This document shows positions 4,946-64,000 of a stretch of DNA of 64,000 nucleotides, in pieces. A model generated the notes under the pieces. It had not been told where the DNA came from. It saw nothing but the letters and a program-made list of their open reading frames with translations, and ran no database searches. Source of the DNA: an uncultured Staphylococcaceae bacterium. GTDB lineage: Bacteria; Bacillota_I; Bacilli_A; RFN20; CAG-826. The position numbers and the translations under genes were made by a program. Numbering within the stretch: position 1 is the stretch's first letter; every line of letters begins with the position of its first letter. The DNA lies in contig CAYQCJ010000001.1 in NCBI GenBank assembly GCA_964416025.1, positions 41,586-105,585 of the forward strand, written 5' to 3'.

Positions 4946-4962
4946 AATAATGGGTATTTGCA

Positions 4963-7878
4963 ATGGATTTTGAAGATTTAACTACAAGAGAAAGCGTCGT
5001 AAGTGCTTTCTTTTTGTCTAAAGATCTATTTAAAGACGTCTTTATAACTGATGCTTGTTATCTTTCTAATGATAAAAATATTATTGCTTTAGCATATAAA
5101 CAAATAAGACTTCCTTTGCTAAATGAATTATTAAACAATTTCGAAGTAAGGAATTTTTTCCTTTCCTTACCTCCTGCTTCCTATTTATTAGATTATAGAA
5201 ATAAGTATTTAAAGTTAGTCGATAATCACGGAAAAATCACTTTAATATCAAAAGAACTTGATCTTTTACTTAGAAGTTTATTAAAGAATTTTTTAAGTTA
5301 TGGTGGATATTTAAATTCTAAAAATGAATTGTTGTTGGATTTAAAAGGCAAGAAAATTGGACCTCATTATGGGGTTAATTTACTGATTGGAAATCGAATG
5401 AATTTTCAAAATCCCTTGCTAACCACCCCTAAATCAGTAGTTGATGAGTTTGGTGGCGGCTCTTTTAGAGGAGATGCAAATTATCAAGTTTTAGCTACAA
5501 GATGGGATATTTTACCCGAAGAAAATGGCAACCCTTTTAATCGTCAGTTTTACATTGTTGAAAAAGGGAACATCATTTTTTATAGTGGATCAATTAATGA
5601 AAAAATTGTTAAAGCCTCCACAAAACATTGTGAAAATAGAACTGAAATTGTATATAAAACAAAAGATTTAATTGTTAAGAGATTTATTTTCATTTTGCCA
5701 CAAAAGAAAGGTCTTCCAAGTGCGGTTGAAACACAAATTATTGTTATTGAAAACCTTACTAGCAAAGAAAGAGAGTTAGAAGTTGTTTTGACCGGTATGT
5801 TCGGTTTATCAAATCCTGAATGTGCGATGGTTGATATAATTTACCAAACGGTTATAAATCAAACTAAAGTATTGATGAGCGAAAATAATAAGATTATTGC
5901 TATAATGCAAGACTATTATCCAAAATATTTTAGAGATCATCAAAGATTTGCAATTCTTAAAAATGACGAGGGATTTGCTGAAGAATTTACAAATAATTGC
6001 CCCGCTTTTCTTAATGGCGGAACCATAGATAATCCTAAAGGAATTAATAAATTAGATTGTAAAGCAAAGATGCATGGAGCGAATTTTTTTGCTTTGAAAA
6101 AATATATTCATCTTAAACCAAAAGGCAGTGACACATTAATGAATTTTGTTGGTTGCACTCATTCTGAAGACATCGATAACATCCAAACAATATCTGATAA
6201 CGAAATTTATAATTTGCTTAAAAATTATAAAAATGATGAAGAAATTTTCGCTGAATTATCTACTTTAAAGAGAAATATGAATAGATATAATTCATTTATT
6301 AATCTTGATAGTACCGATAGATTATTTTCAAGCTATGTAAACAATACCCTTCCATTCCAAGTTTTATATCAAACTTTTGTTTCTCGTTCTTTTTCTCAAA
6401 CTCAAAAAGGTTATAGAGAGATTGGCTTTAGAGAAATTCAAGATTTATATGCCTCAATGTATTACTTAATTAATTTTAAAGGCAGAAAGTTTGTTATAAA
6501 TCTTTTAAGTAAATGGATTGAAAATGTCTACGAATTTGGCTATGCAAACCATAATTTTTATTATGTTGGCAAAGAGCCGGGAATGTGTAGTGATGATGCC
6601 TTGTGGTTAATTGAAGCTATTTATAGATATATTAGTTACACAAATGACTATTCAATTCTTCATAAGAGCTTTAAAGTTGCTGGAAGTAACAAACGCAGAA
6701 AGCTTAAAGATACGATTAAAGCAGTAATTTTATATAGTGGATCGGTAAGTATTGGGAAACACAAATTACCTTTATTGGATTCGGCTGATTGGAATGATTG
6801 CCTTAAAGTTGATCCAGATTTTTTAATGGGTCCTGAAAAAGAAAAACAATATAAAAAACAAATAAGAAATGATAAATCTGGTAAGGTTGTTCCTTTTGTT
6901 TCTAATTATAGTGAATCAGTAATGAATGCTTTTCTTTTGATTAGAGATATTCAATACATGATTGATGTATTTAGTAAAAATGATAAAGATTACACTGATA
7001 ATTTAAAATTGTTATTAGAAGAAAAAACCAAATCAGTTCAACAATACGCTTATAAGAATGATTACTTTACTAGAGTATTAATTAATAGAAATAATAAGAA
7101 CAATATTTCTTATATAGGCAGTAGAGGAGACGGATTATCGACCGATAAAAATGTTGATGGTTCATATTATTTAAATTCATTTTCGTGGAGTTTATTAAGT
7201 GGTGTTGCAAGTGATAATCAAGTGCTATCAATGCTTAATATTGTTGAAAAAGTCCTGCAAACCCCCGCTGGTTTTAAATTATGTTCGAATTCTGACTTAT
7301 CAATTGCTGGCTCAAAACAATCTGCAACTGACCATTATTTTCCAGGAGATAGAGAGAACGGTGGTGTCTTTAAACATGCTGCAATGATGTGTGTTGTAGG
7401 TATGTTAAAAAGAGCAAAAGCAACTAAAAATAATGTTTTAAAAGATAGGTTATTTACTGATGCTTTCTTTATGATTAATTTAACTTTGCCTTATAAAACA
7501 ATTAACAATCCTTATGTCTTTAAAGGTAACCCTAGATTTTGTACACAATATAATAATTCAGTTACAATGGAAAATATTGGACCAATTTTAAGCGGAACTG
7601 CTACGTGGTTAACATTAGCAATCTATGAAATCATTGGTATTAGTTTAGAATTTAATAAAATCACTATATCGCCATCTCTTCCTAAAGAAATTGATCACCT
7701 TGAAGCTAAAATTAAATTGGAGACTTGTACTTTAAATTTAAGAATCAAAAAACATATTGGTGAGTTCTGTGATTATTCAAAAATGACGATTAAGGTTGAT
7801 GGTAAAGATATAGATACTAATGTTATTGATTGTTTCGAAGATAAAAAAGATCATAGCATTTTAGTTAGTTTTTTATAA
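4963..7878 (+). CDS. GH94-clan glycoside phosphorylase (cellodextrin/beta-glucan phosphorylase-like), 971 aa
   Basis: About 970 aa. A DSADWNDCL motif resembles the GDWND catalytic region of GH94/GH149/GH161 phosphorylases. Co-located with the cellobiose phosphorylase, LacI gene and sugar importer. The family assignment is tentative. Confidence 0.5.
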   Translation: MDFEDLTTRESVVSAFFLSKDLFKDVFITDACYLSNDKNIIALAYKQIRLPLLNELLNNFEVRNFFLSLPPASYLLDYRNKYLKLVDNHGKITLISKELDLLLRSLLKNFLSYGGYLNSKNELLLDLKGKKIGPHYGVNLLIGNRMNFQNPLLTTPKSVVDEFGGGSFRGDANYQVLATRWDILPEENGNPFNRQFYIVEKGNIIFYSGSINEKIVKASTKHCENRTEIVYKTKDLIVKRFIFILPQKKGLPSAVETQIIVIENLTSKERELEVVLTGMFGLSNPECAMVDIIYQTVINQTKVLMSENNKIIAIMQDYYPKYFRDHQRFAILKNDEGFAEEFTNNCPAFLNGGTIDNPKGINKLDCKAKMHGANFFALKKYIHLKPKGSDTLMNFVGCTHSEDIDNIQTISDNEIYNLLKNYKNDEEIFAELSTLKRNMNRYNSFINLDSTDRLFSSYVNNTLPFQVLYQTFVSRSFSQTQKGYREIGFREIQDLYASMYYLINFKGRKFVINLLSKWIENVYEFGYANHNFYYVGKEPGMCSDDALWLIEAIYRYISYTNDYSILHKSFKVAGSNKRRKLKDTIKAVILYSGSVSIGKHKLPLLDSADWNDCLKVDPDFLMGPEKEKQYKKQIRNDKSGKVVPFVSNYSESVMNAFLLIRDIQYMIDVFSKNDKDYTDNLKLLLEEKTKSVQQYAYKNDYFTRVLINRNNKNNISYIGSRGDGLSTDKNVDGSYYLNSFSWSLLSGVASDNQVLSMLNIVEKVLQTPAGFKLCSNSDLSIAGSKQSATDHYFPGDRENGGVFKHAAMMCVVGMLKRAKATKNNVLKDRLFTDAFFMINLTLPYKTINNPYVFKGNPRFCTQYNNSVTMENIGPILSGTATWLTLAIYEIIGISLEFNKITISPSLPKEIDHLEAKIKLETCTLNLRIKKHIGEFCDYSKMTIKVDGKDIDTNVIDCFEDKKDHSILVSFL
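5407..5424 (-). repeat. Copy H: degenerate antisense motif (GGTTAGCAAGGGATTTTG on the bottom strand) inside the GH94-like CDS
   Basis: Shares TTAGCAAGGGAT with copy A. Confidence 0.35.
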
Positions 7879-10479: not shown

Positions 10480-10500
10480 GGGGATTAGCAAGGGATATTG
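10480..10500 (+). repeat. Copy A of the 21-nt motif family (GGGGATTAGCAAGGGATATTG)
   Basis: Located 44 nt downstream of the 5'-nucleotidase stop, at the left edge of the helicase island. Confidence 0.6.
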
Positions 10501-13678: not shown

Positions 13679-13745
13679 CAATTTTTACTATCTATAAAGC
13701 ATTTCGATCTAGCTAAATGCCGACTAAATCTGTAAACTGTTTTAT

Positions 13746-24400: not shown

Positions 24401-24630
24401 TTGTTTGGATCGATATAATTGCTTCTTGTATTGCCACTTTTGGAATATGTATTTACTTAAATTATTATTTAAGAAATTTAATGAATATTCCTATAACTGT
24501 TCTCCATGCTGGTTTAAGACAAATTTTAGTTATTGCCGGAATTGGTATCATTACTGCATTTATTTCAACTTTTATTCCTGTTATCAAAACATCAAATAAA
24601 AAACCTATTGATGCAATTCATGATAAATAA
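21424..24630 (+). CDS. Fused ABC ATPase plus FtsX/MacB-type permease with a very large extracytoplasmic domain, 1068 aa
   Basis: Walker [25 protein letters not shown] signature. DEPTGALD. C-terminal FtsX-like transmembrane bundle ([20 protein letters not shown]). About 550 aa between the first transmembrane segment and the last four. Confidence 0.85.
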
Positions 24631-24632
24631 TA

Positions 24633-24652
24633 GGGATTGGCAGGGGATTTTG
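24633..24652 (+). repeat. Copy B of the motif family (GGGATTGGCAGGGGATTTTG)
   Basis: Starts 2 nt after the TAA stop of the ABC transporter gene. Confidence 0.6.
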
Positions 24653-25450: not shown

Positions 25451-25516
25451 TAGCAATTTTTAAAAATTAACCAAAAAAAATGCATTTAACACAAAAATAA
25501 TGCATTTTTTTGTCAT

Positions 25517-28700: not shown

Positions 28701-28946
28701 GCTATCGCAAAAGCCGAAGATCTCTTGGTAATAAACCAATTTAAAATGTTTGTTGATGATGTTGAAATTGACTTATTAGATCCAACTATCAAATTAGGTG
28801 GAGCTGAAGGAAATTCTTATTTTAATTTTAAATCTTGTGCTTATACTCAAGTTAAATTAGCTGCTGGTAAGCATAAAGTTCAAATGAAGATTATTGGATG
28901 TAACGTCGATTATCTTGATCTTAACTTCACAAAAGTTACTGCTTAA
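25764..28946 (+). CDS. Cell-surface lipoprotein with four or more tandem modules of Big_3-like Ig domain plus carbohydrate-binding (CBM6/35-like) domain
   Basis: Lipobox LASCGG. About 80-aa repeats of the form I.V...PTK..Y..G..FD..G..V.A.Y.D.T...VT..YT.DKT...DT.V.ITY.E.TA.VAITV. These alternate with about 150-aa modules ending in RPNLD.F.F. Preceded by the AGGAGG ribosome-binding site at 25748. Confidence 0.65.
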   Translation: MKRTKKFVVALMGLTLACAPVLASCGGTDTPVTPDEKTVSSISVTKKPTKTTYKEGEKFDKTGMVVTALYSDKTSEAVTDYTIDKTGELKMADTKVTITYKEKTATVAISVKSNVTVASIVIKAQPTKLEYVEGDLFDPDGMIITATMTDGTTKDVNSGYTYDKTKGLAVADTTVTITYQEKTATVAITVTKRTDITVNALGVYKIEAEDLNTGNATLREDFVSAGRTFIEEGADASGGKNLCGYKPGSYFTINIHCDEDSTVYITSRMSDTNTNYVLKSGLKTEMDGVIVEPTNDPKFTYNGGNDYWNWVDVIYGTVNLTKGDHVFKITSVDQRPNLDFFQFEATKYNGLSEDKVLTGIRIATQPTKVAYEVGDKFDATGLVVKAVYSTKEEEVITDYTLDKADVELTEADTKIIVTYETFTAEIAITVGKVYPLKLNALGDNVFEAEDLTPDDKWILRTDMAGQTTYTVTSSESSGGKSIERYEVGTVMTLPFYVSEDSKIHFTSIVSNYDEIVLNDTVEFKIDETLLTSNNPTLGHRHGSDWWNWKTADFGTVELAKGEHTLTINMKSARPNLDAFNFHVMKLGTAEEPHTVKALNVKTQPTKTSYTEGETFDGTGLTLEVAYNDSMNEVVTEGFTFDKTGALTTEDTKVVVTYGELTVEVAITVAPLIQLALDSVGSHKFEAESLVPNDAWIWRSDMGEKTTYVIDNAEASGAKSIERYAVGTVMTMKFSVAEASKLHLSSVMSDSKSYSLEGNVDFKIDDTALTYDINPTLGSSTASTYYNWKTAWFNEVELAAGTHVLTITMTKERPNLDCFDFHMTKMGETVEDHNLSSISIASAPTKVDYYEGDTLDLTGLKLMASYTDTAIEEVTTGYTVDKTAALTAEDKVVTITYNELTVTFNINVVASADIEVIADAVDKKLEGEEMDTTHMTNNGNSSFVETSNVDSTIKCLGNGTSGYANFYYNLSKEMNLDMTAAIAKAEDLLVINQFKMFVDDVEIDLLDPTIKLGGAEGNSYFNFKSCAYTQVKLAAGKHKVQMKIIGCNVDYLDLNFTKVTA

Positions 28947-28955: not shown

Positions 28956-28990
28956 TATCGAGAGAAATTTGTTTCTTAAATTTCTCTCGA
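28956..28990 (+). terminator. Perfect 14-bp stem hairpin (ATCGAGAGAAATTT / AAATTTCTCTCGAT) between two lipoprotein genes; weak U-tract
   Basis: Read directly. 9 nt after the stop at 28946. Confidence 0.45.
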
Positions 28991-29011
28991 TTCATAGGAA
29001 AGGAAAAATAT

Positions 29012-29743
29012 ATGAAGAAGATAAAATTATTAACATTAACAGCCTCATTATTGAGTGTATTAATGTTAACTTCCTGTAATGCAAAGACGCCAATCATTGA
29101 TGATGGCGGTGATAATACTACAGAAGGTGATTTTGAATATGAAGATCCAACAACTGGAATTGTTCCAGATGATGGAAGTGGTGATGGCGATGGCGCCGGA
29201 GATGGCGATGGTGATGGACCAACCGACAATTTTGGAGATTTAGATATTGAAGTTATTGCTACTGTTAATGCCAACGGAACATTCGTTGCTGAAGCAGAAG
29301 ATTGCGATACAAGTGGATGTACTTTACAAGCGGGTTGCGGAGGATTCTTTGAAACTCCAAGCGCTCCTGCTAGTGCGAGTGGTGGAATGTGTATTGCATG
29401 TATTGCTGCACCTTCAATTCTTGCTTTCTCTTTTACTCTTGAAGATAAATGCAATGTTGAATTCCAAACTGTCAGTGCTAAATACGAAGATTCATGGAAT
29501 TTAGATGAAAATGTCGCCTATTATGTTGATAGAAATAAAGACGAATCATTTACTCATACTTTAACGTCTGGTGGATTTAAAGAATTCGGTCATACCGATA
29601 CAATTCAATGGTATAACTGGAAAACAGTAAGTTTAGGAAGTTTAGATTTAGCTAAGGGAACCCACACAATGTATATCAAAGTGAACAATGCTTTCCCAAA
29701 TACAGATTGCTTCAATTTAGTTGCAACTAATTATGGATTATAG
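29012..29743 (+). CDS. Lipoprotein with an acidic Gly/Asp-rich linker and one CBM-like domain (paralogous to modules of the upstream protein)
   Basis: Lipobox LTSCNA. DGSGDGDGAGDGDGDG low-complexity stretch. The C-terminus (WYNWKTVSLGSLDLAKGTHTMYIKVNNAFPNTDCFNLV) resembles the ends of the upstream CBM modules. Confidence 0.6.
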   Translation: MKKIKLLTLTASLLSVLMLTSCNAKTPIIDDGGDNTTEGDFEYEDPTTGIVPDDGSGDGDGAGDGDGDGPTDNFGDLDIEVIATVNANGTFVAEAEDCDTSGCTLQAGCGGFFETPSAPASASGGMCIACIAAPSILAFSFTLEDKCNVEFQTVSAKYEDSWNLDENVAYYVDRNKDESFTHTLTSGGFKEFGHTDTIQWYNWKTVSLGSLDLAKGTHTMYIKVNNAFPNTDCFNLVATNYGL

Positions 29744-33326: not shown

Positions 33327-34034
33327 ATGATCAACATTGCAATTATTGAAGATGAAATTAACGAGCAGAATCTTTTAAAGGGATTTTTTGATCAGTTAGC
33401 AACAAGCTTGAATGAAAAAATCTGTTTAAAAGTTTTTAATAATGGAAAAGAGTTTCTATTTAATTTTGAATTTGGAATTTTTGATCTTGTTTTGATGGAT
33501 ATCGAACTAAATAGCGATAAAAATGGAATTGAGGTCTCACAAAAATTAAGAGAAATTGATAATGAAGTTGTCTTGGTTTTTATGACTAATTTATCACAAT
33601 ATGCAATTGAAGGATACAAAGTTAAAGCGACAGATTACATCGTTAAACCAATCTCTTATTATGATTTTTCAATTAGAATGACAGCAATTTTTGCTAACAT
33701 AAATAATAAAAAAGTTAAAAAAGTTTTGATTCAATCAGATGGTGTTAAGGTAGTTTTATTGGTTAGAGATATTTGTTATATCGAAGTTTTAAATCACTCA
33801 TTAATTTATCACACAACTAATGGCGATTATATATGTCGTGGATCGCTCAGTTCTACCGAAAAAGAAATGAGAAATTATAATTTTTCATTGTGTAATTCTT
33901 GTTTCTTAGTAAATTTAGCGTTTGTTGAAAGTGTTGAAGGATATAGCGCCATCATTCATGGTGAAAAATTACTAATTTCTCATCCAAAAAGAAAGAATTT
34001 CTTGAAAGATTTAAGTGGGTATTTAGGACAATGA
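33327..34034 (+). CDS. LytTR-family response regulator (AgrA/LytR-like)
   Basis: N-terminal receiver (IAIIEDE...DLVLMDIEL) and a C-terminal LytTR DNA-binding domain. Confidence 0.85.
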   Translation: MINIAIIEDEINEQNLLKGFFDQLATSLNEKICLKVFNNGKEFLFNFEFGIFDLVLMDIELNSDKNGIEVSQKLREIDNEVVLVFMTNLSQYAIEGYKVKATDYIVKPISYYDFSIRMTAIFANINNKKVKKVLIQSDGVKVVLLVRDICYIEVLNHSLIYHTTNGDYICRGSLSSTEKEMRNYNFSLCNSCFLVNLAFVESVEGYSAIIHGEKLLISHPKRKNFLKDLSGYLGQ

Positions 34035-35395
34035 TGGAATATTTATATCCAATAAGCGGTTTATTTTTCTACCGATTAATATTTATGTTTTGGCTCCTTT
34101 TTGGTGAAGGGCTTTTTGTTTTCCGTTTTAAAAAGAAAAAACATTTTGTTGTTAGAACGTTATTAGCAATTTTAGCTTGTTTCTTATTTGCTTTAGCTTT
34201 CCCAATTCCTACATCAAATGCTTTCTATTTAATGATTATGTTCCTTTTGATGTTTGTTTTTACTTATTTTGCCAGTATGTTCTTATTTGAAGTTGAGTGG
34301 AAAATGCTTTTGTTTTCGATGATTAGTGGATATACTATCGAACAAATTGCTTATGAAACATATTTTGCATTTAATAATTTCTTAAATTTAAATCAATATC
34401 AAAATGGCGGAATGTATTCTAAAGACACTATTAATTTATTTAGTGGACCACTCGATCAATTCATCTATTTTGCTTGTTATATTGTTGTTTATTGGGTGAT
34501 GTTTGTTTTATTTGCTAATCGTATTAAAGGTAGCCAAGAGTTTGATTCTAATTCTTCAAAATCAAATTTAAAATTTTTGGTTATTGGAATATTCTTCTTA
34601 TCGAGTGATATTGTAATTAGTAGTGCCGTATCTTTTTACGCTACAATTCATTATGAAAATATTTATATGGGAATTATCTCGATTGTTATCGCACTTTGTT
34701 GTTTGATTGGTCTCTTCTTCTTGTTTGAAATGTTCTATGGAAATAACCTGAAACATGATATGGAAATTGTAAAAGAAATCCGTAAAGAAGAGAAAAATCA
34801 GTATCAAATATCAAAAGAAACAATCGATTTAATCAATATTAAGTGTCACGATTTTAGACACCAAATAAGAAAGCTTGGTAAAGAACAAAATATTCAAGAA
34901 TCAGCCATTGAAAATGTTAATAAATTAATTAATATTTATGATTCATCTATTAAAACATCAAATGACACTTTAAATGTTATTCTTACAGAAAAGTCATTAA
35001 TTTGTGCTAAAAACGGTATTAAATTTTCCTGTATTGCTGATGGAATGATTTTAAACTTTATGACTGAAGAAGATATTTATTCTTTGTTTGGAAATATTAT
35101 TGATAACGCTATTGAAGCGGTTAATCATCTTTCAGACGATAAAAAAATAATTACTTTAAGAATTAAATCAATCGGTAATATGATTTCGATATCAGAGAAG
35201 AATTCCTATGATAACGATATTCATTTAATCAATGGTTTGCCTCGTTCCAATAAGAACGATACTCTTCATCATGGTTTTGGATTAAAATCTATTAAATTAA
35301 TTTGTGAAAAGTATCACGGAACAATGCAAATAAATTACGATAACAATATCTTTAATATTACGTTGTTATTTATTCCTTCAAATCTTGATAAATAA
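34031..35395 (+). CDS. AgrC/ComD-like membrane histidine kinase (HATPase_c_5 type)
   Basis: Six or seven N-terminal transmembrane helices. H-box KCHDFRHQIRKL. GHKL ATPase with LFGNIIDNAIEA. Overlaps the response regulator gene by 4 nt. Confidence 0.75.
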   Translation: MMEYLYPISGLFFYRLIFMFWLLFGEGLFVFRFKKKKHFVVRTLLAILACFLFALAFPIPTSNAFYLMIMFLLMFVFTYFASMFLFEVEWKMLLFSMISGYTIEQIAYETYFAFNNFLNLNQYQNGGMYSKDTINLFSGPLDQFIYFACYIVVYWVMFVLFANRIKGSQEFDSNSSKSNLKFLVIGIFFLSSDIVISSAVSFYATIHYENIYMGIISIVIALCCLIGLFFLFEMFYGNNLKHDMEIVKEIRKEEKNQYQISKETIDLINIKCHDFRHQIRKLGKEQNIQESAIENVNKLINIYDSSIKTSNDTLNVILTEKSLICAKNGIKFSCIADGMILNFMTEEDIYSLFGNIIDNAIEAVNHLSDDKKIITLRIKSIGNMISISEKNSYDNDIHLINGLPRSNKNDTLHHGFGLKSIKLICEKYHGTMQINYDNNIFNITLLFIPSNLDK

Positions 35396-35404: not shown

Positions 35405-35427
35405 GGGGGATTGGCAAGGGATTTTTG
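35405..35427 (+). repeat. Copy C of the motif family (GGGGGATTGGCAAGGGATTTTTG)
   Basis: 10 nt after the histidine-kinase stop. Confidence 0.6.
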
Positions 35428-38799: not shown

Positions 38800-39600
38800 A
38801 TGATAGTTTTACCAATAAAAACCGGATATACACTTGTATCTTCGGCTGTTCCAAACAGAAATACTCATCATTTTGGTTTGGCTTATACTGGATTGCTTCA
38901 ATCAAAGAAGAAAAGGATTAAAGTTCCAGTAAAGTGTTTTTATATTCATGTTAAGGGGCATTCATTTTTAATTGATGCCGGATGGAGTAAAGAGTGTGTT
39001 TCTAATCCAAAAAAACATTTAGGATTTGGGCTTTATTTTGCTAGTGAGCCAGTTATCAAAAGCGGCGAAGCTTGTGTTGATCAATTAAAAGCAAAAGGAA
39101 TAAAGATAAGTGATATTGATGGCATTTATATGACTCATTTAGATTGTGATCATGTGTCTGGATGTCATGATTTTAAGGATAAAAATATTTATGCTTCAGA
39201 AGACGAAATTAAATATGCAAAACACAAAAAGATTCGTTATGGAAAATTAGTTAATGGATTGAAAATTAAGCCATTATTATTCAAAATCCCTTGCCAATCC
39301 CCATTTAATTCTTGTTACGATGTTTTGAATGATGGTTCAGTTATTGCTTATTTAACTCCGACTCATTCTAAGGGCAGCTTAATTTATAGAGTTAATGAAG
39401 GCGATAAATTTGTGCTTATTGTTGGTGATAATGGCTATAACGAAGACTCATGGAAAAATGATTTTTTACCTGGGCCAATTTATAATAAAAAGAACACTTT
39501 AAAGGCATTAAATTGGATTAATGAACAATCGAAGGATAAGAATTGTTTAGGTGTCTTTTGCGCTCATGACTTAAGAGAAGCTAAAGAAATATCTATATAA
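38800..39600 (+). CDS. MBL-fold metallo-hydrolase
   Basis: HxHxDH-type block THLDCDHVSGCHDF. Carries an antisense copy of the motif family at 39283-39303. Confidence 0.7.
   Translation: MIVLPIKTGYTLVSSAVPNRNTHHFGLAYTGLLQSKKKRIKVPVKCFYIHVKGHSFLIDAGWSKECVSNPKKHLGFGLYFASEPVIKSGEACVDQLKAKGIKISDIDGIYMTHLDCDHVSGCHDFKDKNIYASEDEIKYAKHKKIRYGKLVNGLKIKPLLFKIPCQSPFNSCYDVLNDGSVIAYLTPTHSKGSLIYRVNEGDKFVLIVGDNGYNEDSWKNDFLPGPIYNKKNTLKALNWINEQSKDKNCLGVFCAHDLREAKEISI
39283..39303 (-). repeat. Copy G of the motif family, minus orientation, inside the MBL hydrolase CDS (reads GGGGATTGGCAAGGGATTTTG on the bottom strand)
   Basis: Exact 21-mer. Encodes FKIPCQSPF on the top strand. Confidence 0.6.
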
Positions 39601-41933: not shown

Positions 41934-41966
41934 AATAACGCCTGCCAATCGGCGTTATTTTTTTAT
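41934..41966 (+). terminator. Rho-independent terminator (AATAACGCC-tgccaatc-GGCGTTATT plus T7)
   Basis: 9-bp perfect stem, 8-nt loop, TTTTTTT run. Confidence 0.7.
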
Positions 41967-44170: not shown

Positions 44171-45436
44171 ATGAGTGAAAATAAATTAGTTATAAGTCAA
44201 CGTGAAAAGAATAAATTACGTAAAAGAAAATTGTCCGATTTATTAGCAAACGGAACGACAATTTTGTTTTCAACTTTTTGTGTCGCTATCCTTGTATGGA
44301 TATTAGTGTATGTGTTTTCAAATGGTTATAAATATTTAACATGGGAATATCTTACTAGTGATTATTCACAAGATTCATTAGTAATTAAAACTCCTGATGA
44401 TTTTGATATTGATAACTACCAAACATTTGATGAAGCAAGCTCAGAAGAAGGAACATATTTTTCTTCGAAATGGGGAGTTTCATTAAAAAACGGAGTAGAT
44501 AACGATAAAAATACCGTCGTTTACTTTGCTAATATTCAAAATGGTTCTCCAATTAAAGATTTAATAAATGCCGGAAACACTCAAGTAGCTGATATTAATC
44601 AAAATTATTATATAAGTTATATTAATTTTGAATCTAAAGACGGATTGTCTAGTACCATAATTAATGGTGCAGATGGTGCTCAAGAAATGGCAAAAGCCTT
44701 TGATAAATATGATGTTATTTTTACGAGCGTTATCGTCTCACTTGGTGGAGGAATTAGAGGTTCTTTATTGAACACTTTATTATTAATAATAGTTACGATT
44801 ATCATCGCTTTACCTATTGGAATTGGAGCAGCAATATATTTAGCATGTTATGCAAAAGAAGGGCGATTGACAAGGGTTTTTAGAACTTTAATCGATATTA
44901 CAAGTGGAATTCCGTCGATAATTTTTGGTCTAGCAGGCGCCATTATTTTTATTCCTTTTACCAATGTAATTATGGGAACAAACGGAGGAAATATATTAAG
45001 CGGAGCTTTAACAATGTCGATAATGTTACTACCAACAATTGTTAAAAATACTGAAGAATCTATTAAGGTTATACCAAAGCCATTAAAGGATGCATCTTTA
45101 GCATTAGGAGCTAGCTACTCCCAAACAATGTTTAAAGTAATTCTACCTAATGCATTACCTAGAATTTTAACTTCAGTTCTTTTATCGATAGGAAGAATAA
45201 TTGGTGAATCAGCCGCTTTAGTATTCGCTTTAGGAACAACTATCGGAGACACGGCATCATTTACAAAAGGTTATGCGACTTTAGCTGTTCATATTTGGTT
45301 GATTTTAGGTGGAGAAACACCAGCATACGGAAGTGCTTGTGCAATATCGATTATTATTATTTTGACGGTCTTAATCTTATCAATTTTAGTTAAGTTGATA
45401 TCTTTAAGATTAAATAAGTTTAAAGGGAGAAATTAA
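44171..45436 (+). CDS. pstA: Phosphate ABC transporter permease with a large extracytoplasmic loop
   Basis: Permease signature EASLALGAS. Confidence 0.8.
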   Translation: MSENKLVISQREKNKLRKRKLSDLLANGTTILFSTFCVAILVWILVYVFSNGYKYLTWEYLTSDYSQDSLVIKTPDDFDIDNYQTFDEASSEEGTYFSSKWGVSLKNGVDNDKNTVVYFANIQNGSPIKDLINAGNTQVADINQNYYISYINFESKDGLSSTIINGADGAQEMAKAFDKYDVIFTSVIVSLGGGIRGSLLNTLLLIIVTIIIALPIGIGAAIYLACYAKEGRLTRVFRTLIDITSGIPSIIFGLAGAIIFIPFTNVIMGTNGGNILSGALTMSIMLLPTIVKNTEESIKVIPKPLKDASLALGASYSQTMFKVILPNALPRILTSVLLSIGRIIGESAALVFALGTTIGDTASFTKGYATLAVHIWLILGGETPAYGSACAISIIIILTVLILSILVKLISLRLNKFKGRN

Positions 45437-47506: not shown

Positions 47507-49177
47507 ATGAAGAAAAGAATAATAATTGTTAATAGTGTTATTGTTTCGTTAGCTCTTATTTTTACTTTTATTATTTGTGTTTTGGCCGCCAATAATTCTA
47601 TATTTTCACAAGCTCAAAGTAATGTTGTTTTTGTAACTGAAACTTGTGCGAATTCTTATGATGAATTTAAAAGCAGTAATATTATTATAAAAGATGATAG
47701 TTATCGTGAAACCATTATAGATAAAGACGGAAATGTTCTTGAAGATTCTAAAGAAAGTGATGTTAGTAAAATGGCTAATCACTTATCAAGAGAAGAGGTT
47801 CAAGCCGCTCTTGCTGGCGAACCTAAAATAATCATGAGAGATTCTGAAACTATCGGTCAAACCTACTTATATTATGCAATAAAGGTCAATACTAGCACCT
47901 CATATGTCTTTATTAGAGTTGCTTTAACAGTGTCCGCAATTAAGGCTTTTACTTACGCTTCAATGCCTTTAATTATAGTTGTTTTAATTCTAGCTATTCT
48001 ATTTGTTGTCTTAGCTTCATTTTTAATGACTAAAAACACTCTTAAACCAATTACAGTTATAAGAGATCAACTTAACGATATCGTTTTAGGAAGACCAACA
48101 AATGCGGCCTTAACAACGAAAGATAAAGATGTCGTTTTAATAATGGATGATATTAATGTTATTGAAAACAAACTTCAAAATAGTATTCAATCGATGACGA
48201 CCCAAAAAGAAAAGTTAGAGTATATAATTAATAATATCAGCGATGGAATTGTAGTTTTAGATTCGCATTTCGTAATTAGTTCTATAAATAAATCTGCTTA
48301 CAAAATATTTGATATTAGTAATTTAGTAGGCAAAAATTTGAGTTATTTAACTTTAGATGAAAAACTCATTAAAAAAATTCAAGATGCGACTAAGGAAAAT
48401 AACAAACAATTTGAATATTCAATTGGTTCAACATTTTATTATGTGAATGTTTCTAGAATTGATGACTTATTCCTTTTAGTATTTACTGATATTAATAATG
48501 AAAAACGCAATCAAGAAATGAGAGAAGAATTCTTTAGAAGTGCCAGTCATGAATTAAAGACTCCATTAACCTCGATTATTGGATATGATCAATTAATTGC
48601 GTCATGTACTGATGACCAAGACATTAAGGATTATTCTTCAGAAATCGAGAAAAATTCAAGAAGAATGTTAACCTTAATTTTAGATATGATGTCGATTTCT
48701 GAACTTGATAGTCGTAAAGAAATTAAGAAAGAAGTTGTCGATTTAAATGAGACTGCCAAAGAAGCTATTAGTTCATTAAAACAACTAATTGAAGGGGGAT
48801 TAGCAAGTGTTTTTGTAAACGGCGATGCTAAAATTAATGGTATAAAAGATGATTTCTCTAGATTGTTTAAGAACCTAATTGAGAACTCAATAAAATATAA
48901 TGATAAAGCCAAAAAAGAAATTATTGTCGATATTTCTGAAGACAAATCTTTTGTTACAATTTCGATAAAAGACAACGGAATAGGAATTAAGAAAGAAGAT
49001 CAAAACAGAATTTTTGAAAGATTTTTTACAGTTGATAAATCAAGAAGTAAAGAGCTTGGTGGAACAGGTTTAGGTTTAGCAATTGTTAAACATATTGTTG
49101 AATATTATCAAGGAACCATTGAAGTAAATTCAAAAATTGGAGTTGGTACCGAAATGATATTTAAACTAAAAAAATAA
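47507..49177 (+). CDS. Sensor histidine kinase (PhoR-like)
   Basis: Two transmembrane segments. HisKA H-box FRSASHELKTPL. HATPase_c (GGTGLGLAIVK). Confidence 0.85.
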   Translation: MKKRIIIVNSVIVSLALIFTFIICVLAANNSIFSQAQSNVVFVTETCANSYDEFKSSNIIIKDDSYRETIIDKDGNVLEDSKESDVSKMANHLSREEVQAALAGEPKIIMRDSETIGQTYLYYAIKVNTSTSYVFIRVALTVSAIKAFTYASMPLIIVVLILAILFVVLASFLMTKNTLKPITVIRDQLNDIVLGRPTNAALTTKDKDVVLIMDDINVIENKLQNSIQSMTTQKEKLEYIINNISDGIVVLDSHFVISSINKSAYKIFDISNLVGKNLSYLTLDEKLIKKIQDATKENNKQFEYSIGSTFYYVNVSRIDDLFLLVFTDINNEKRNQEMREEFFRSASHELKTPLTSIIGYDQLIASCTDDQDIKDYSSEIEKNSRRMLTLILDMMSISELDSRKEIKKEVVDLNETAKEAISSLKQLIEGGLASVFVNGDAKINGIKDDFSRLFKNLIENSIKYNDKAKKEIIVDISEDKSFVTISIKDNGIGIKKEDQNRIFERFFTVDKSRSKELGGTGLGLAIVKHIVEYYQGTIEVNSKIGVGTEMIFKLKK

Positions 49178-49202
49178 TTTTTATATTTTGCAATTTTTAA
49201 AT

Positions 49203-49256
49203 CGGGATTGGCAAGATAATTTTAAAAACCCTTGCCAATCCCCTTTCTTTTTTCTC
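49203..49256. terminator. Terminator hairpin built from the motif family: GGGATTGGCAAG-loop-CCTTGCCAATCCC plus T-run (copy D; bottom strand reads GGGGATTGGCAAGGGTTTTTA)
   Basis: 12-13-bp perfect stem, 14-nt A/T loop, then CTTTCTTTTTTCTCG. Confidence 0.65.
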
Positions 49257-49378
49257 GTTACAGTCGAAATTTGCTCTAAATAACACTACAAATTTTCTTT
49301 TAAAAATTTTTACAATCTAAAATGTAAATTATCTTTTTTGCTATGAATTGGACTTTTTTATCTCTATAATCACAATAT

Positions 49379-60264: not shown

Positions 60265-60292
60265 TTAGTAAGGGCCAACTGGCCCTTACTAA
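60265..60292 (+). terminator. Terminator-like hairpin TTAGTAAGGGCCA-ac-TGGCCCTTACTAA
   Basis: 13-bp perfect GC-cored stem, 5 nt after the stop. A/T-rich but not pure T tail. Confidence 0.55.
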
Positions 60293-60381: not shown

Positions 60382-62385
60382 ATGAAAAAAGAACTGACAT
60401 TGGCCGAGAAAATTGAAAGTTTGAGTGGTGTTGATGGATGGAAAACTGCTAATTTTGAAGGCGCCTTAAAATCAGTTTTTATGTCGGACGGTCCTAACGG
60501 AGTGCGACAAGTTTATCAAGAAATAAATACTGTTCAATCAGCATACAAAAACAATGCATATCCTACTTTATCTGCTTTAGCAAACACACGGAATAAAGAA
60601 ATGGTATATGAAATTGGCAATTGTATTGCCGAAGATTGCATCAAACAAAACATTAATATTATTTTGGGTCCTGGTGTAAATATTAAAAGAAATCCACTGT
60701 GTGGAAGAAATTTTGAATATTTTAGTGAAGATCCTTATTTAGCTGGTATATTGGCCTCAGCATATATTAATGGTGTTCAAAGCCGCGGAGTTGGGGCTTG
60801 TTTGAAACATTTTTGTGCAAACAATTCTGAATATGATAGATTTTATCAATCTAGTGAAATTGACGAAAGAACGCTTCATGAAATTTATTTAAGGCCTTTC
60901 GAAATTGCAATTAAAAATTCTAAACCTCGGACTATGATGTGCTCATATAATCCTGTAAATGGCGTATATACTAGCGAATCTAACGAATTAATAAATAACG
61001 AATTAAGATGTAGACTAGGTTTTGATGGTTACATGATTAGCGATTGGGGAGCTGTACGTGATAGAGCAAAATCATTAAAAGCTGGAATTGATTTAGCAAT
61101 GCCTTTCGATTCTAAGTTCGCTGATCAATTAAAGACAGGTCTTGATGATGGTTTTATAAAAGAAAAAGATATTGATCTATCTATTAATAGATTAATTACT
61201 TTAAATCAAAAAATAGAAATAAATAAAGACAAATACAAAATAACTCTCTCAGAAGAAGATAAAAATAAAATTGCTATTAAAGCAAGCGAAGAATCAATAA
61301 TTTTATTAAAAAATGCCGATAATTTATTACCATTAAAAAATAAGGAAGATAGCATCGCTGTTATTGGTTATTTTGCCGAACATCCTACAATTTGTGGAGA
61401 AGGAAGTGCAAAAGTTGTTCCTATTAGAGAAGACCTTTCATTAATAGATAAACTAACAAAAGAAGAGGGATTTACAAGGGTTTTTTACGAAAGTGCGTAT
61501 ATTATTAGATATAATTTAATACAGCCTTGTGGTTATAAAAACGCAATAAAATTGGCTGACGAATGCAATAATGTTATTTTGTGTGTTGGCAATAACGATC
61601 TTATTGAAAAAGAGGAAACAGATAGAGAAACAATAAATTTAAAACCTCAAATCGTAGATTTAATTAATAAAGTATCAAAAGTTAATTCGAATACTATTTT
61701 AGTTATTTATGCTGGCTCGGTTGTAAATTTAAATGAAATTAAAGATAAAGTAAAAACCATTGTTTTTGCAGGTTACAATGGTCAAGGCGTTAATGATGCT
61801 CTAGCTAAAATTATTTCTGGCAAAGTAAATCCATCCGGAAAAACAAGTGAAACATTTATAGCTGATGAGAACAATTCTTATTTTAAAAGTAATGTTGGCG
61901 ATTCATTTGTTGAAAATTATAGAGAAAAAGGCTTGGTTGGTTATAGGTATTACGAGAAAAAGAACATTGATGTTGTTTATCCGTTTGGCTTCGGCCTTTC
62001 TTATTCAGAGTTTGAATATTCTAATTTAAGGGTTAAGAAAATAAGCGAATTAAATTATGAAATCTCTTACGATATTAAAAATATTTCAAATATAGATGGA
62101 AAAGAAATATCACAAATCTATGTTGGAAATGAATTTTTAATGGTTGAAATGCCTAAGAAACAACTTGTTAATTTCTCTAAAGATTTAATTAAAGCTGGAG
62201 AAACCAAAACAATTTCGTTAAATATTGATGAAGATGCTTTTAGATATTATTCTCTTGAGACTCATAATTGGTATGTCGAGAACGGAACATATAAATTATA
62301 CGTTTGCTCATCATCAAAAGATGTACGTTTAGAAGATAAAATTGTTATTAAAAGAGATTATTGTTCTCAATATTCAAATAAGTAA
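60382..62385 (+). CDS. Cytoplasmic GH3 beta-glucosidase (BglX-like)
   Basis: FSEDPYL. KHFCANNSE. GFDGYMISDWGAV nucleophile block. No signal peptide. Confidence 0.85.
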   Translation: MKKELTLAEKIESLSGVDGWKTANFEGALKSVFMSDGPNGVRQVYQEINTVQSAYKNNAYPTLSALANTRNKEMVYEIGNCIAEDCIKQNINIILGPGVNIKRNPLCGRNFEYFSEDPYLAGILASAYINGVQSRGVGACLKHFCANNSEYDRFYQSSEIDERTLHEIYLRPFEIAIKNSKPRTMMCSYNPVNGVYTSESNELINNELRCRLGFDGYMISDWGAVRDRAKSLKAGIDLAMPFDSKFADQLKTGLDDGFIKEKDIDLSINRLITLNQKIEINKDKYKITLSEEDKNKIAIKASEESIILLKNADNLLPLKNKEDSIAVIGYFAEHPTICGEGSAKVVPIREDLSLIDKLTKEEGFTRVFYESAYIIRYNLIQPCGYKNAIKLADECNNVILCVGNNDLIEKEETDRETINLKPQIVDLINKVSKVNSNTILVIYAGSVVNLNEIKDKVKTIVFAGYNGQGVNDALAKIISGKVNPSGKTSETFIADENNSYFKSNVGDSFVENYREKGLVGYRYYEKKNIDVVYPFGFGLSYSEFEYSNLRVKKISELNYEISYDIKNISNIDGKEISQIYVGNEFLMVEMPKKQLVNFSKDLIKAGETKTISLNIDEDAFRYYSLETHNWYVENGTYKLYVCSSSKDVRLEDKIVIKRDYCSQYSNK

Positions 62386-62394: not shown

Positions 62395-63906
62395 ATGATA
62401 TATAAAATTGATTTAATTAAAAATGAAGGGTTCTATGGGGGAGCCATCAATGACGGAATTTCTATGCCATATAAAGATGGCAATTTTTCACGAGATTTAA
62501 GAGAGTGGCACGGAGGAAACCAAGCTTCTTCAATTCTGGTTTCTAATAAAGGTAGATATGTCTATTCAAATTACCCATTCAATATAAAATTAGAAAATAA
62601 TTGTATTATTATTGAATCGGAACATGAAGTTGTAATCTCAAAAAACGGAAGCAATTTAAAGTCAGGATATGAGGGATTGGCAAGGGATTTTTATAAAAAT
62701 GATCATAAAACTCCTAATTTATTGATGTTTGAAAAACCACAATATAACACCTGGATTGAGATGGAATGGGATTGCACAGAAACTAAAGTTTTGAAATATG
62801 CTCATGAAATAATTAGTAATGGATATCCAACGGGTGTATTAATGATTGATGATTGCTGGTGCAAAGATTATGGCGTATGGGATTTTGATGTTGAAAAATT
62901 CCCAAATGCTAAGAGAATGGTTGATGAATTGCATAAATTAGGATTTAAAGTAATGCTTTGGATTTGTCCTTTTGTTTCTCCAGATAGCAAAGAATTTCGT
63001 GAATTAGAATCTAAAGGCTTATTGGTTAAAAAAGATGATCAAAGTGCTATATCTCATTGGTGGAATGGGTATTCGGGCGTTCTAGATTTGTCAAAACCTG
63101 AAGCAAGAGATTATTTTAACAATATTGCTGATAATTTAATGAATAAATATGGTGTTGATGGATTCAAAATGGATGCTGGTGATCCTGAATATTATCACGA
63201 AGGCTTTAAATTTGCTGATGGCAAAGAAAAATCATTTCAAGCTCAATATTGGGCTGAAATGGGTGAAAGATATGAATTTAATGAATTAAGAGTAGCTTTT
63301 AATAATAATTTAAAATGTGTTGCTCATAGATTGAGAGATAAAAATCATTCTCGGGATAATGAAGGATTAAATATGTTAATTCCAAATGCTTTAGCGATGG
63401 GAATTTGTGGTTATCCATATTTATGCCCAGATATGATAGGCGGCGGAATGGTTCCTGATTTTCATAGAGAAGGTTTTAAGTTTGATGAAGAACTTTTTGT
63501 TCGTTATGCTCAAGTGGCAGCTCTATTCCCAATGATGCAATTTTCAAGATCTCCTTGGAAAGTTTTGTCAGTCAAAAATCAAGATTATTGCCTAAATGCT
63601 GTTAATCTACATTTGAAATATAGTGATTTAATTAAATCGTTGGCAATAAATGCATCTAAAACGGGAGAACCTATTTTAAGATATTTATCATACAATTATT
63701 CAGATGTTGAATATCTTGATGTGAACGACCAATTCTTATTGGGCGATGATATAATGGTTGCCCCACAATTGAAAAAAGGAAATAATAGAAAAGTTGTCGT
63801 TCCTAATGGTGTTTGGGTTGATGAACAAGGAAAAAAATATGAAAAGGGAATTTATGAAATTGAAGTTCCATTATCACGTTTGCCTATTTTTAAAAGGATT
63901 GGATAA
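62395..63906 (+). CDS. GH31-like (clan GH-D) alpha-glycosidase, 503 aa
   Basis: LMIDDCWCKDYGVWDFD and VDGFKMDAGD blocks resemble the GH31/GH27/GH36 catalytic TIM barrel. Contains motif copy E at 62673-62693. Confidence 0.55.
   Translation: MIYKIDLIKNEGFYGGAINDGISMPYKDGNFSRDLREWHGGNQASSILVSNKGRYVYSNYPFNIKLENNCIIIESEHEVVISKNGSNLKSGYEGLARDFYKNDHKTPNLLMFEKPQYNTWIEMEWDCTETKVLKYAHEIISNGYPTGVLMIDDCWCKDYGVWDFDVEKFPNAKRMVDELHKLGFKVMLWICPFVSPDSKEFRELESKGLLVKKDDQSAISHWWNGYSGVLDLSKPEARDYFNNIADNLMNKYGVDGFKMDAGDPEYYHEGFKFADGKEKSFQAQYWAEMGERYEFNELRVAFNNNLKCVAHRLRDKNHSRDNEGLNMLIPNALAMGICGYPYLCPDMIGGGMVPDFHREGFKFDEELFVRYAQVAALFPMMQFSRSPWKVLSVKNQDYCLNAVNLHLKYSDLIKSLAINASKTGEPILRYLSYNYSDVEYLDVNDQFLLGDDIMVAPQLKKGNNRKVVVPNGVWVDEQGKKYEKGIYEIEVPLSRLPIFKRIG
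62673..62693 (+). repeat. Copy E of the motif family inside the GH31-like CDS (GGGATTGGCAAGGGATTTTTA)
   Basis: Identical over 20 nt to copy C. Encodes EGLARDFY. Confidence 0.6.
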
Positions 63907-64000
63907 ATGATTTATAAAGTTATTGATTTATATAATTACTTTAATATCAAAAAGAATGGGGATTTGCAGGGGTTTTTGCATATTTACGCTCTTGAAAATC
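63907..64000 (+). CDS. Start of a further gene (MIYKVIDLYNYF...), possibly a GH31 paralog; runs off the window
   Basis: The ATG overlaps the upstream TAA (TAAATGA). Its N-terminus resembles the MIYKIDL start of the preceding gene. Contains motif copy F at 63958-63978. Confidence 0.3.
   Translation, partial: MIYKVIDLYNYFNIKKNGDLQGFLHIYALEN
63958..63978 (+). repeat. Copy F of the motif family (GGGGATTTGCAGGGGTTTTTG)
   Basis: Variant with T in place of G at motif position 8 and no A before the T-run (GGGGTTTTT). 52 nt after the GH31 stop. Confidence 0.5.

Follow-up and report, generated by a model that had tools for sequence, protein, structure and literature searches.

A dispersed 19-nt motif in genes and spacers of an uncultured Bacillota lineage appears to be constrained as nucleotides and built in place by substitutions

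The window, by which we mean the whole 64-kb stretch of DNA analysed here, very probably holds a lineage-specific dispersed motif, with exact copies that are under constraint at the nucleotide level whatever their strand or frame, and with intragenic copies that arose in place, through point substitutions where the protein tolerates change and not through insertion. As for the cause, we tentatively suggest that the copies may be built and kept by a process on double-stranded DNA that favours motif-bearing fragments or alleles. The two-layer explanation as a whole, in which the dispersed constrained motif is combined with an uptake-like process, is in our judgement a serious possibility that falls short of being probable.

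The shared exact string is 19 nt long, GGGATTGGCAAGGGATTTT. It is common to a copy in a GH31 gene (copy E), a copy in an MBL-fold hydrolase gene (copy G) and an intergenic copy at 35407, and the bases flanking it differ. A previous reading of the letters (hereafter the sequence-only reading) had described an unchanged 21-mer; the shared string is real for E and G, but its length is 19 nt. A copy was defined as a match to this 19-mer with three mismatches or fewer. The window contains three exact copies and 13 copies in total by this definition, where the expected number is close to zero (0.03 in dinucleotide shuffles and 0.0 in order-1 Markov simulations for the latter). The 12-mers of the motif are the most over-represented ones in the window, by more than 1000-fold, and its 10-mers are likewise top-ranked. 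The motif is a G-rich word with a spacing of about one per 5 kb. Loci of relatives, about 60 kb in all, have copies at a similar density, which would extrapolate to hundreds of copies per genome, these copy numbers being based on about 120 kb of sequence (the window and the relatives' loci), not on a genome. The contig of the window was followed for a further 7.4 kb on its left side.

The core of the motif contains an internal direct repeat of 11 nt (GGGATTgGcAA/GGGATTtTgAA), with A- and T-tracts on the flanks. The consensus can be extended to AAAArAAkG-core-GAA, about 30 nt, and an extended unit of 30-45 nt is common to the copies. A sub-variant, GGGATTTGCAGGGG, is recurrent. Single copies show no self-complementarity, are not palindromic, and carry neither terminal inverted repeats nor target duplications.

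Seven of the 13 copies are intragenic. They lie in seven unrelated genes and, as had been claimed, on both strands and in several frames, namely in four strand/frame combinations. The host ORFs of these seven copies carry Pfam domains or, for the esterase ORF, an orthologue. Copy E, the focal copy (62673..62691, + strand), is an exact 19-mer in the GH31 gene at 62395-63906, where GAG GGA TTG GCA AGG GAT TTT encodes EGLARDF. Copy G (39283..39301, - strand), also exact, is antisense in the MBL-fold hydrolase gene at 38800-39600, which reads AAA ATC CCT TGC CAA TCC CCA (KIPCQSP) at this site. Copy F (63959..63977, + strand) has the variant GGGATTTGCAGGGGTTTTT and occupies codons 18-24 of the ORF starting at 63907, a BD-FAE-type esterase by orthology with locus L073; it encodes GDLQGFL in a frame that differs from that of E. 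The sequence-only reading had placed these three copies correctly. It had also placed copy H (5408..5426, - strand; QNPLLTT) in the GH94 gene, where the copy is indeed found, antisense, but as a 16/19 match and not as an unchanged string. A partial copy proposed in phoU (copy I) has six mismatches. Since the window contains 16 matches with exactly six mismatches, against about 12 expected, copy I is at chance level and cannot be counted. Three further intragenic copies had been missed, all on the + strand, in the frame of E and with three mismatches (16/19): 44863..44881 in a pstC-like permease gene (GRLTRVF), 48796..48814 in a PhoR-like histidine kinase gene (GGLASVF) and 61467..61485 in a GH3 gene (EGFTRVF).

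Of the sense intragenic copies, four are in the same frame, and their peptides are alike (G-L/F-A/T-R/S-D/V-F). This similarity speaks for a reading in which codon usage or a recurring GLARDF-like peptide produced the string by coincidence, with no meaning at the nucleotide level. We give this reading practically no credence. The same string occurs in intergenic and antisense copies, the ancestral peptides differ, and the copies use rare codons (AGG, 7% of Arg; TCC, 4% of Ser; GGG, 6% of Gly; CAG, 5% of Gln). With the near-zero expected counts given above and the conserved synonymous sites described below, the coincidence or peptide reading is already refuted by over-representation, rare codons and synonymous conservation. 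Since the motif is found on both strands and in four strand/frame combinations in seven genes, the full set can be explained neither by a peptide nor by a single RNA strand. A mini-ORF (ATG GGG ATT GGC AAG GGA TTT TGA) was also considered and rejected, because the ATG is present in only about one third of the copies.

Alignment of orthologues, as the sequence-only reading had proposed, was decisive, first of all in a sister species (species R; loci L022, L082 and L073), which shows about 80% nucleotide identity to the window organism. Copies E and G are kept exactly in species R (at L073:2683 and L022/L082:2357, respectively), all 14 synonymous sites included. Copy G in species R lies inside a 23-nt identical run of a gene with 80% identity. 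Equal conservation in 19-nt windows drawn at random from these genes has a probability of P = 0.034 for E and P = 0.006 for G. For the five intragenic copies with an orthologue in species R, 25/28 codons at conserved amino acids are identical between the two species, against a background of 65% (P = 0.0035). Added up over the motif windows, divergence is 9, where 18.2 would be expected (P = 0.014). Copy F differs at one position (L073:3968). The intergenic copy at 35407 matches at 18/19 positions in species R, and it is the lone conserved island in an otherwise divergent spacer. The claim that selection acts on the nucleotide string and not on the peptide is upheld by the conserved synonymous sites and the rare codons. 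What was found is neither a peptide conserved without its nucleotide motif nor a count in the window equal to the random expectation.

The 3-mismatch copies, in contrast, drift at the background rate between the window organism and species R. The site of 44863 matches at 17/19 in species R, and CGA versus GGA there accounts for one of a small number of amino-acid changes in a protein with 94% identity; the site of 61467 reads GGGATTGGCAAaGGtAaaT. In another relative, E1 (GCA_020633815.1), copy H has the same 19 nt (L087:10446). The site of the 4953 copy matches at 18/19 in E1 (L087:9991). Within the 19-mer, motif positions 3 and 7 are the two at which the window and E1 differ, and of the 52 nt ahead of this copy 51 are identical. 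Two copies differ between the window and E1 despite long identical flanks. From these differences and the drift of the 3-mismatch copies, constraint is clear for exact copies only.

The origin of the intragenic copies was analysed on the basis of an outgroup (L075/L076; two overlapping loci of 15.3 kb and 11.5 kb, 29% GC), the GH31 protein of which shows 68% amino-acid identity. No copy with four mismatches or fewer was found in either locus. At E, F, 61467 and L073:5350, the motif is absent from L075 and the alignment contains no indels. By direct count, 10 of 21 nt are substituted at E, and 13 of 24 nt at F. The L075 sequence is AAA GAA GGA CAA AAA GGA TTT CTT at site F and is unrelated to the motif at the site of 61467. 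At site G, 18 more distant MBL homologues show F-x-D-D-x-x-A-P-F, with no motif peptide and no indel. Since the motif is absent without indels from both the outgroup and the distant homologues, it was very probably built in place by substitutions. The intragenic copies are located in variable protein regions. The copies also altered otherwise conserved residues, and in the MBL protein the motif swaps a nearly invariant Ala for Ser. The orthologue pattern, the variable protein regions and the rare codons together rule out peptide selection, chance and insertion of a mini-transposon. A different motif 'dialect' in the outgroup was looked for and rejected, since L075 has no GC-containing 11-mer repeated three times or more.

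These alignments bear directly on the idea that the copies are remnants of a tiny mobile element (of REP/REPIN, MITE or cyanobacterial SDR type), inserting after genes and sometimes in frame. One inverted doublet does form a REPIN-like hairpin, singlets by gene ends resemble decayed REPINs, and the extended unit is common to the copies. However, no length difference was found at 5/5 comparable intragenic sites (four against L075, and G against distant homologues), and the unit is not palindromic and lacks the terminal features of such elements. Furthermore, all-against-all BLAST with +/-150-nt flanks detected no similarity past about 45 nt, on which ground a larger mobile element surrounding the copies was rejected too, and no transposase or RAYT-like gene is present in the window or the loci examined. 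For the intragenic copies this explanation is largely refuted, and we regard it as very improbable overall.

The other six copies are intergenic and fall within 5.3% of the window (3.4 kb), where the density of copies is about 15-fold higher than elsewhere. They are located 2-44 nt past a stop codon and at least 65 nt ahead of the next start, with the exception of the copy at 4953. The exact copy at 35407..35425 (+ strand) is 11 nt past the stop of the gene at 34031-35395 and 65 nt ahead of a DUF5714 gene. A 17/19 copy at 10481..10499 (+ strand) is 44 nt past the stop of the gene at 9456-10436, and an 18/19 copy at 24633..24651 (+ strand) is 2 nt past the stop of an ABC/FtsX gene (21424-24630). 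The 16/19 copy at 4953..4971 (+ strand) is 7 nt past the stop of the gene at 4055-4945 and overlaps the GH94 gene, the start codon of which (4963) is inside the copy. The remaining two copies form an inverted pair at 49204..49242 (49204-49222 on the + strand and 49224-49242 on the - strand) after the kinase gene. The pair gives a 12-bp hairpin with a 15-nt loop (-22.4 kcal/mol, z = -5.9) and then a T-run, the hairpin being followed by CTTTCTTTTTT. This is an intrinsic-terminator-like structure and the sole such instance; a GC-rich hairpin with a U-tract was found only at this pair, not at single copies. In species R, the antisense arm only is present at this site. A near-match at 41939 is part of an ordinary hairpin terminator and was not counted.

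The concentration of copies behind stop codons points to a one-orientation signal at gene 3' ends. Such a signal might be a 3' UTR RNA element (a protein or RNase site, or an aid to stability or termination) or a roadblock-type hairpin-less DNA terminator, with intragenic copies as by-products or internal attenuators. Single intergenic copies are sense in 9 cases and antisense in 2-3. By our own count, the motif occurs in four of about eight larger co-directional gene gaps, likely operon boundaries. Canonical terminators are few in the window, one pair of copies is itself a hairpin terminator, and the core contains two GGGAU repeats, which are Shine-Dalgarno-like or resemble CsrA-like GGA motifs. 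The copy at L077:3502, which follows a minus-strand operon, is also on the minus strand. This copy is, however, preceded by a canonical hairpin and T-run and would therefore be mostly untranscribed. MFE folding of the 13 copies with their flanks gave no common fold, and an Rfam search of the motif returned nothing at the gathering or E<=1 thresholds. Single copies pair with downstream sequence no more stably than shuffled sequence does. The idea that they are hairpins in decay, the right arm having been eroded by C-to-T changes (10481, 24633, 35407), was rejected on RNAduplex energies against shuffles (P 0.15-0.99, combined about 0.1 by Fisher's method). Antisense copy G is exact and keeps all its synonymous sites, which would not be expected of a sense-RNA signal, and a terminator within the GH31, pstC or kinase gene would make little sense. 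We consider a 3'-end signal unlikely. The sequence-only reading had also stated that antisense intragenic copies are complementary to the 3'-UTR copies; this holds at the level of the sequence.

The orientation of the copies was also considered. Across independent sites, 17 copies are sense and 5 antisense (P about 0.02), a bias that is confounded with the near-uniform gene direction and a GC skew of +0.15. The G-rich strand of the motif is the + strand of the window, which has this skew and carries nearly all genes. This arrangement would suit a polar Chi/KOPS-type site, or a site at which an abundant sequence-specific DNA-binding protein (in chromosome organisation, or a tandem winged-helix regulator) reads the 11-nt repeat. 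The period of the repeat is about one helical turn, A- and T-tracts flank it, the motif occurs on both strands, and its constraint acts at the DNA level. The 77% orientation skew and the spacing also resemble Chi of E. coli, the density of which is about one per 5 kb. On the other hand, Chi and KOPS are 5-8 nt long, and we know of no polar site of 19 nt. Operators, for their part, are degenerate sequences ahead of the genes that they regulate, not past stop codons or in GH31 and MBL genes; each arbitrary intragenic position would cost about 10 directed substitutions, and no candidate cognate protein adjoins the copies. A DNA-binding or polar site is, in our view, improbable. A transcription-factor operator was rejected for the same reason of position, the copies being past stop codons or in genes and not fixed upstream of regulated genes. 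Promoter readings also failed: a -10 element does not occur consistently 16-18 nt past TTGGCA, the sigma-54 TGGCA-to-TTGC spacing is wrong, and scans showed no enrichment. The analogy with restriction target islands drawn in the sequence-only reading found no support.

The motif is present, with variants, in the window organism, species R, E1 and UBA4855, and is clade-restricted. Among 185,579 species-representative genomes, none was multi-copy for the exact 19-mer. Three matches in viral contigs are isolated chance hits, the contigs having about 50% GC, and a phage origin was rejected. Recombination breakpoints were rejected as well, since the breaks of synteny between the window and E1, at window positions 8447 and 10633, do not match copies. 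A limited literature search retrieved no such motif family, and the exact string is in no paper searched.

Sequence-biased uptake with homologous replacement, as in the uptake signal sequences of Pasteurellaceae (USS) and those of Neisseriaceae (DUS), is the only well-documented process of the kind proposed at the outset, and our preferred explanation is based on this. In such an uptake-signal-like process, partial chance matches, such as an ancestral GGx TTx Gxx xxx GAT TTT in GH31, would be improved stepwise. Copies would gather where constraint is weakest, namely in variable protein loops and in the short interval that separates a stop codon from the following promoter, and inverted pairs may have been recruited as terminator hairpins. 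That the G-rich orientation prevails on the sense/leading strand could result from coding capacity and the strong G>C skew. That antisense copy G is as strictly conserved as sense copy E counts in favour of this process. Against it speak the absence of any competence gene or pilin from the window and the relatives' loci examined, the drift of the 3-mismatch copies, and the differences from USS/DUS in orientation, length and codon choice given below. It is possible, though on the doubtful side, that the motif serves an uncultured, naturally transformable lineage of the Erysipelotrichaceae-like group as an uptake signal for self-recognition, or is else a new hairpin-less, protein-read gene-end mark.

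To our knowledge, sequence-specific DNA uptake is known only in two proteobacterial families, and no uptake signal sequence has been described for the low-GC Bacillota (Erysipelotrichaceae-like) group of the host. Short words dispersed by substitution over both genes and spacers are likewise known to us mainly from two proteobacterial families, where they reveal sequence-biased uptake. The uncultured Bacillota lineage shows the same footprint, with building in place, synonymous conservation of exact copies, a cost in rare codons and amino acids, and clade restriction. Should the motif be an uptake signal, this would be the first case of sequence-specific uptake outside Proteobacteria that we know of, with an unusually long tandem-repeat signal of 19-30 nt. 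Uptake specificity would then have evolved independently in Gram-positive relatives, and the motif would provide a sequence handle for gene flow in metagenomes. If it is instead a protein-read end-of-gene or chromosome-organising site, it would be a new cis-element with a consensus ready for pull-down. The motif is also usable as a precise binning and lineage marker.

Comparison with known systems shows likenesses and differences. REP/REPIN elements (BIME, RAYT) resemble the motif in being short, abundant, mostly downstream of genes and clade-conserved, with hairpin doublets and common singlets. REPs are, however, individually palindromic, strictly extragenic and spread by a transposase, whereas the motif unit is not palindromic and about half of its copies (7/13) are inside genes, with no indel at the intragenic sites compared. 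For MITE- or SDR-like elements, unit-length indels relative to orthologues would be seen, and none was found at E, F, 61467, L073:5350 or G. The cyanobacterial HIP1 is an 8-nt palindrome, lineage-specific, inside genes and conserved beyond codon expectation, and cyanobacterial SDRs are units of about 21-27 nt within genes that appear as insertions. The motif is similarly a lineage-specific short word inside genes but is a 19-nt non-palindrome that arises without indels. Chi (RecBCD/AddAB) and KOPS/SRS (FtsK/SpoIIIE) are likewise G-rich, mostly on the gene-sense strand, and in coding and non-coding DNA. Their 5-8 nt, in contrast to the 19-30 nt of the motif, arise easily by chance, their orientation follows the direction in which the DNA is replicated, and they are not concentrated past stop codons and form no terminator pairs.

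The closest comparison for our preferred explanation is with USS and DUS. Competent cells preferentially take up DNA that bears such sequences, by way of a receptor (ComP or a minor pilin), and a genome holds hundreds to thousands of copies. USS and DUS are short asymmetric motifs with AT-rich flanks, hugely over-represented on both strands; within genes they favour certain frames and residues of poor conservation, they are denser just downstream of genes, their inverted pairs are terminator hairpins, and they are common to related species with variants and arise by substitution (PMC2817400, PMC2346458, bioRxiv 10.1101/2025.10.24.684340). No general genome-wide orientation bias has been published for USS/DUS, although bias within genes exists, and USS reading frames correlate with preferred codons. 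The motif differs in its marked one-orientation excess, in its use of rare and not preferred codons, in its core of 19 nt (19-30 nt extended) against known cores of 9-12 nt, and in its host, a Bacillota of the Erysipelotrichaceae-like group. The sequences are unrelated. The motif resembles USS/DUS in using both strands and lying within as well as outside coding DNA, in its bias of frame and its preference for residues of poor conservation, in arising by substitution, and, in a single instance, in forming a terminator from an inverted pair.

The sequence-only reading described a 21-mer shared unchanged between unrelated genes. A shared exact string does exist, but it is the 19-mer GGGATTGGCAAGGGATTTT, because the flanking bases differ between copies. 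It is intact in copy E (62673, plus strand) within the GH31 gene (recognised by its Pfam GH31 domains; 62395-63906), in copy G (39283-39301, minus strand) within the gene for the MBL-fold hydrolase, and in a plus-strand copy in an intergenic spacer (35407-35425). Copy F (63959, plus strand) occupies codons 18-24 of the ORF after the GH31 gene, in a frame different from that of E. Plus-strand copies matching at 16 of 19 positions lie in the pstC-like (44863), PhoR-like kinase (48796) and GH3 (61467) genes, all in the frame of copy E. The intragenic copies are thus embedded in seven unrelated genes, with four strand/frame combinations in use, in agreement with the earlier claim of both orientations and several frames. 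Copy H in the GH94 gene, which had been taken as unchanged, matches at only 16 of 19 positions, and the phoU match, with six mismatches, is in a class about as frequent as chance predicts (16 hits, with about 12 expected) and is not counted in the family.

Sites with at most three mismatches number 13 in the window (G+C 30%, nearly all genes on the plus strand), against 0.03 in dinucleotide shuffles and 0.0 expected in order-1 Markov simulations. The most over-represented 10- and 12-mers of the window are words of the motif, the 12-mers by more than 1000-fold. Intergenic DNA makes up 5.3% of the window and contains six of the 13 copies, which lie 2-44 nt 3' of a stop codon. They are at least 65 nt upstream of the next start, except for the copy at 4953-4971, which overlaps the GH94 start (GCA ATG GAT TTT) and so places its G-rich 5' half where the ribosome-binding site would be. 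The motif family is real, and its evolutionary footprint is clear.

Proteins of the uncultured bacterium that carries the window (W) are also present on JGI and Logan metagenome contigs, and on an NCBI contig of 162,545 bp. In the genome E1 (GCA_020633815.1, labelled 'MAG: Erysipelotrichaceae bacterium') the GH94 orthologue is 89% identical to that of W. A sister species, R (loci L022/L083, L073 and L082), shows about 80% nucleotide identity and 77-96% amino acid identity per gene, and an outgroup (L075/L076; G+C 29%) shows 68% amino acid identity in GH31. A scan of 185,579 species, with a single genome per species, gave only scattered single matches to the exact 19-mer; UBA4855, a 27%-GC MAG, has one exact match and an 8-kb locus with two family members. 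A metagenome scan returned four low-GC contigs from one sample, belonging to or resembling R. These scans therefore indicate that the motif is limited to a narrow lineage. W and E1 were also compared at 10634-16682 (L087:19227-22916 in E1), where two adjoining large helicase genes (AAA_11/AAA_12, and PLD nuclease with ResIII and DUF3427) look like a defence island. These genes are only about 75% identical, whereas the adjacent GH94 operon is 89% identical, and W and E1 have wholly different genes in the stretch that separates operon from helicases.

The orthologue alignment that had been proposed was carried out between W and R, and R was found to keep the nucleotides of copies E and G beyond background. 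The MBL gene differs at 20% of nucleotides, and an identical 23-nt run spans copy G; in GH31, R retains GAG GGA TTG GCA AGG GAT TTT of copy E exactly. Conservation as high in random 19-nt windows of the same genes had P = 0.006 for G and P = 0.034 for E, and the summed test over five intragenic copies gave P = 0.014. At unchanged amino acids, 25 of 28 codons are identical within the copies, compared with 65% elsewhere (P = 0.0035), and the copies use codons rare in the genome (AGG, 7% of Arg; TTG, 13% of Leu; TCC, 4% of Ser; GGG, 6% of Gly; CAG, 5% of Gln). In an otherwise scrambled spacer, the only island of conservation (18/19) is the intergenic copy at 35407. Nine window copies fall where R sequence is available, and eight of these have a counterpart in R at the orthologous site. 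This comparison supports constraint at the nucleotide level, with selection on the string rather than on the peptide, as the earlier reader had suggested.

Strict conservation is confined to the exact copies. Between W and R, divergence is at background level for the 16/19 copies of the pstC, kinase and GH3 genes. At copy 4953 (16/19 in the window, 18/19 in E1 at L087:9991-10009) and at L077:3502, W and E1 differ at motif positions despite 50-77 nt of identical flank, with the other genome closer to the consensus each time. The copies therefore undergo turnover.

Two overlapping outgroup loci (15.3 kb and 11.5 kb) contain no copy with four or fewer mismatches, and the outgroup alignment has no indel at four intragenic sites. 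The outgroup reads TTA GGC TTA GTT GAT GAT TTT at site E and AAA GAA GGA CAA AAA GGA TTT CTT at site F; its sequence is unrelated at the sites in the GH3 and RDD genes. By direct counting, site E (21 nt) has 10 substitutions and site F (24 nt) has 13. From these counts and the alignments free of indels, we therefore concluded that the copies were built in place. In alignments of 20 homologues each, site E lies in a variable protein stretch where ancestral G-L-V-x-D-F became G-L-A-R-D-F, and at site G F-x-D-D-x-x-A-P-F became F-K-I-P-C-Q-S-P-F, including loss of a nearly invariant Ala. Construction in place thus cost the proteins something. Peptide selection and chance, as origins of the copies, are ruled out by such construction at a cost. 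In-place substitution also rules out that the intragenic copies come from a mobile mini-element, and a REPIN- or MITE-like origin, contradicted for these same copies, is highly improbable.

Sense copies, relative to the local gene, number 17 and antisense copies 5 (P ~0.02) over the independent sites of W, R, E1 and UBA4855, and one minus-strand copy lies 3' of a minus-strand operon, downstream of the operon's own hairpin terminator. An orientation-dependent end-of-gene signal, acting on RNA or DNA, is a somewhat unlikely explanation of the motif. The GC skew of the plus strand in the window is +0.15, so that the excess of the G-rich orientation is inseparable there from composition or replication. 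It is also somewhat unlikely that the motif is bound by an abundant DNA-binding protein or serves as a polar site of the Chi or KOPS kind.

Aligned with one another, 21 non-orthologous copies drawn from the window and from relatives gave an extended consensus of about 30 nt, AAAArAAkG-GGGATTGGCAAGGGATTTT-GAA, with the strongest positions at G1, G3, C9, G12-14 and the T-run; GGGATTTGCAGGGG is a recurrent sub-variant. Within the core is a direct repeat of 11 nt (GGGATTgGcAA/GGGATTtTgAA), and no similarity among copies extends past about 45 nt. For single copies, no conserved fold was found, pairing with downstream sequence was no better than in shuffled controls, and an Rfam search gave no match. 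The inverted pair at 49204-49242 resembles an intrinsic terminator, since it forms a 12-bp hairpin followed by a T-run. In this region (49178-49378), 3' of the PhoR-like kinase gene, R (L082:12254-12464) has the antisense arm and T-run only; a terminator stem has therefore been gained or lost through creation or erosion of one copy.

Several other hairpins were observed. Inside an unusually long 616-nt gap, a TetR-type HTH frame (25165-25450) is broken by a frameshift, MGRNESKYFNTALLMDESLILLLEKKDFDT... resuming as ...TVKEICVKACINRSTFYLHYENTTDLIKE in another frame, and is probably a pseudogene; a hairpin terminator (AAAAAAAATGCATT...AATGCATTTTTTT) follows it at about 25470-25510. A 14-bp perfect inverted repeat with T-runs at 28957-28991 (ATCGAGAGAAATTT...AAATTTCTCTCGAT), between the genes 25764-28946 and 29012-29743, looks like a bidirectional terminator. 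The canonical bidirectional terminator at 41934-41959, 3' of the GGDEF gene, includes in its stem and loop CTGCCAATCG, which matches the reverse-complemented motif core at 10 of 12 positions; this likeness may be a coincidence or a remodelled copy. At 60268-60292, directly 3' of the Big_2 surface-protein gene, is a GC-rich perfect hairpin with no T-run, AGTAAGGGCCAACTGGCCCTTACT. Located 3' of the polysaccharide-deacetylase gene in the outgroup is a canonical GC hairpin terminator (AAAAAGTAGCTACCGTTGTAGCTACTTTTT; L076:10747-10835), whereas in R the corresponding place has no hairpin and one exact copy of the motif (L073:8753-8963); the gene context 3' of this gene differs between the two.

The motif string was in no searched paper, and a limited literature search gave no family of this kind outside two proteobacterial families; as far as checked, the family is undescribed. 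We know of no uptake-signal system described in Bacillota. The traits to be accounted for are a motif read on either strand, stability of its exact copies, creation of copies through directional substitution at arbitrary tolerant positions, their highest density in the only free DNA 3' of genes, reuse of pairs as terminators, and restriction of the family to its clade. These traits match published features of uptake signal sequences, which favour poorly conserved residues and particular frames (PMC2817400) and show an orientation excess within genes (PMC2346458). On the basis of this match we put first, tentatively, a transmission bias like that of uptake signals. The motif differs from known uptake cores in its greater length, and its orientation is skewed. 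It is best classed, unproven, as a new putative variant among genomic words of the uptake-signal type.
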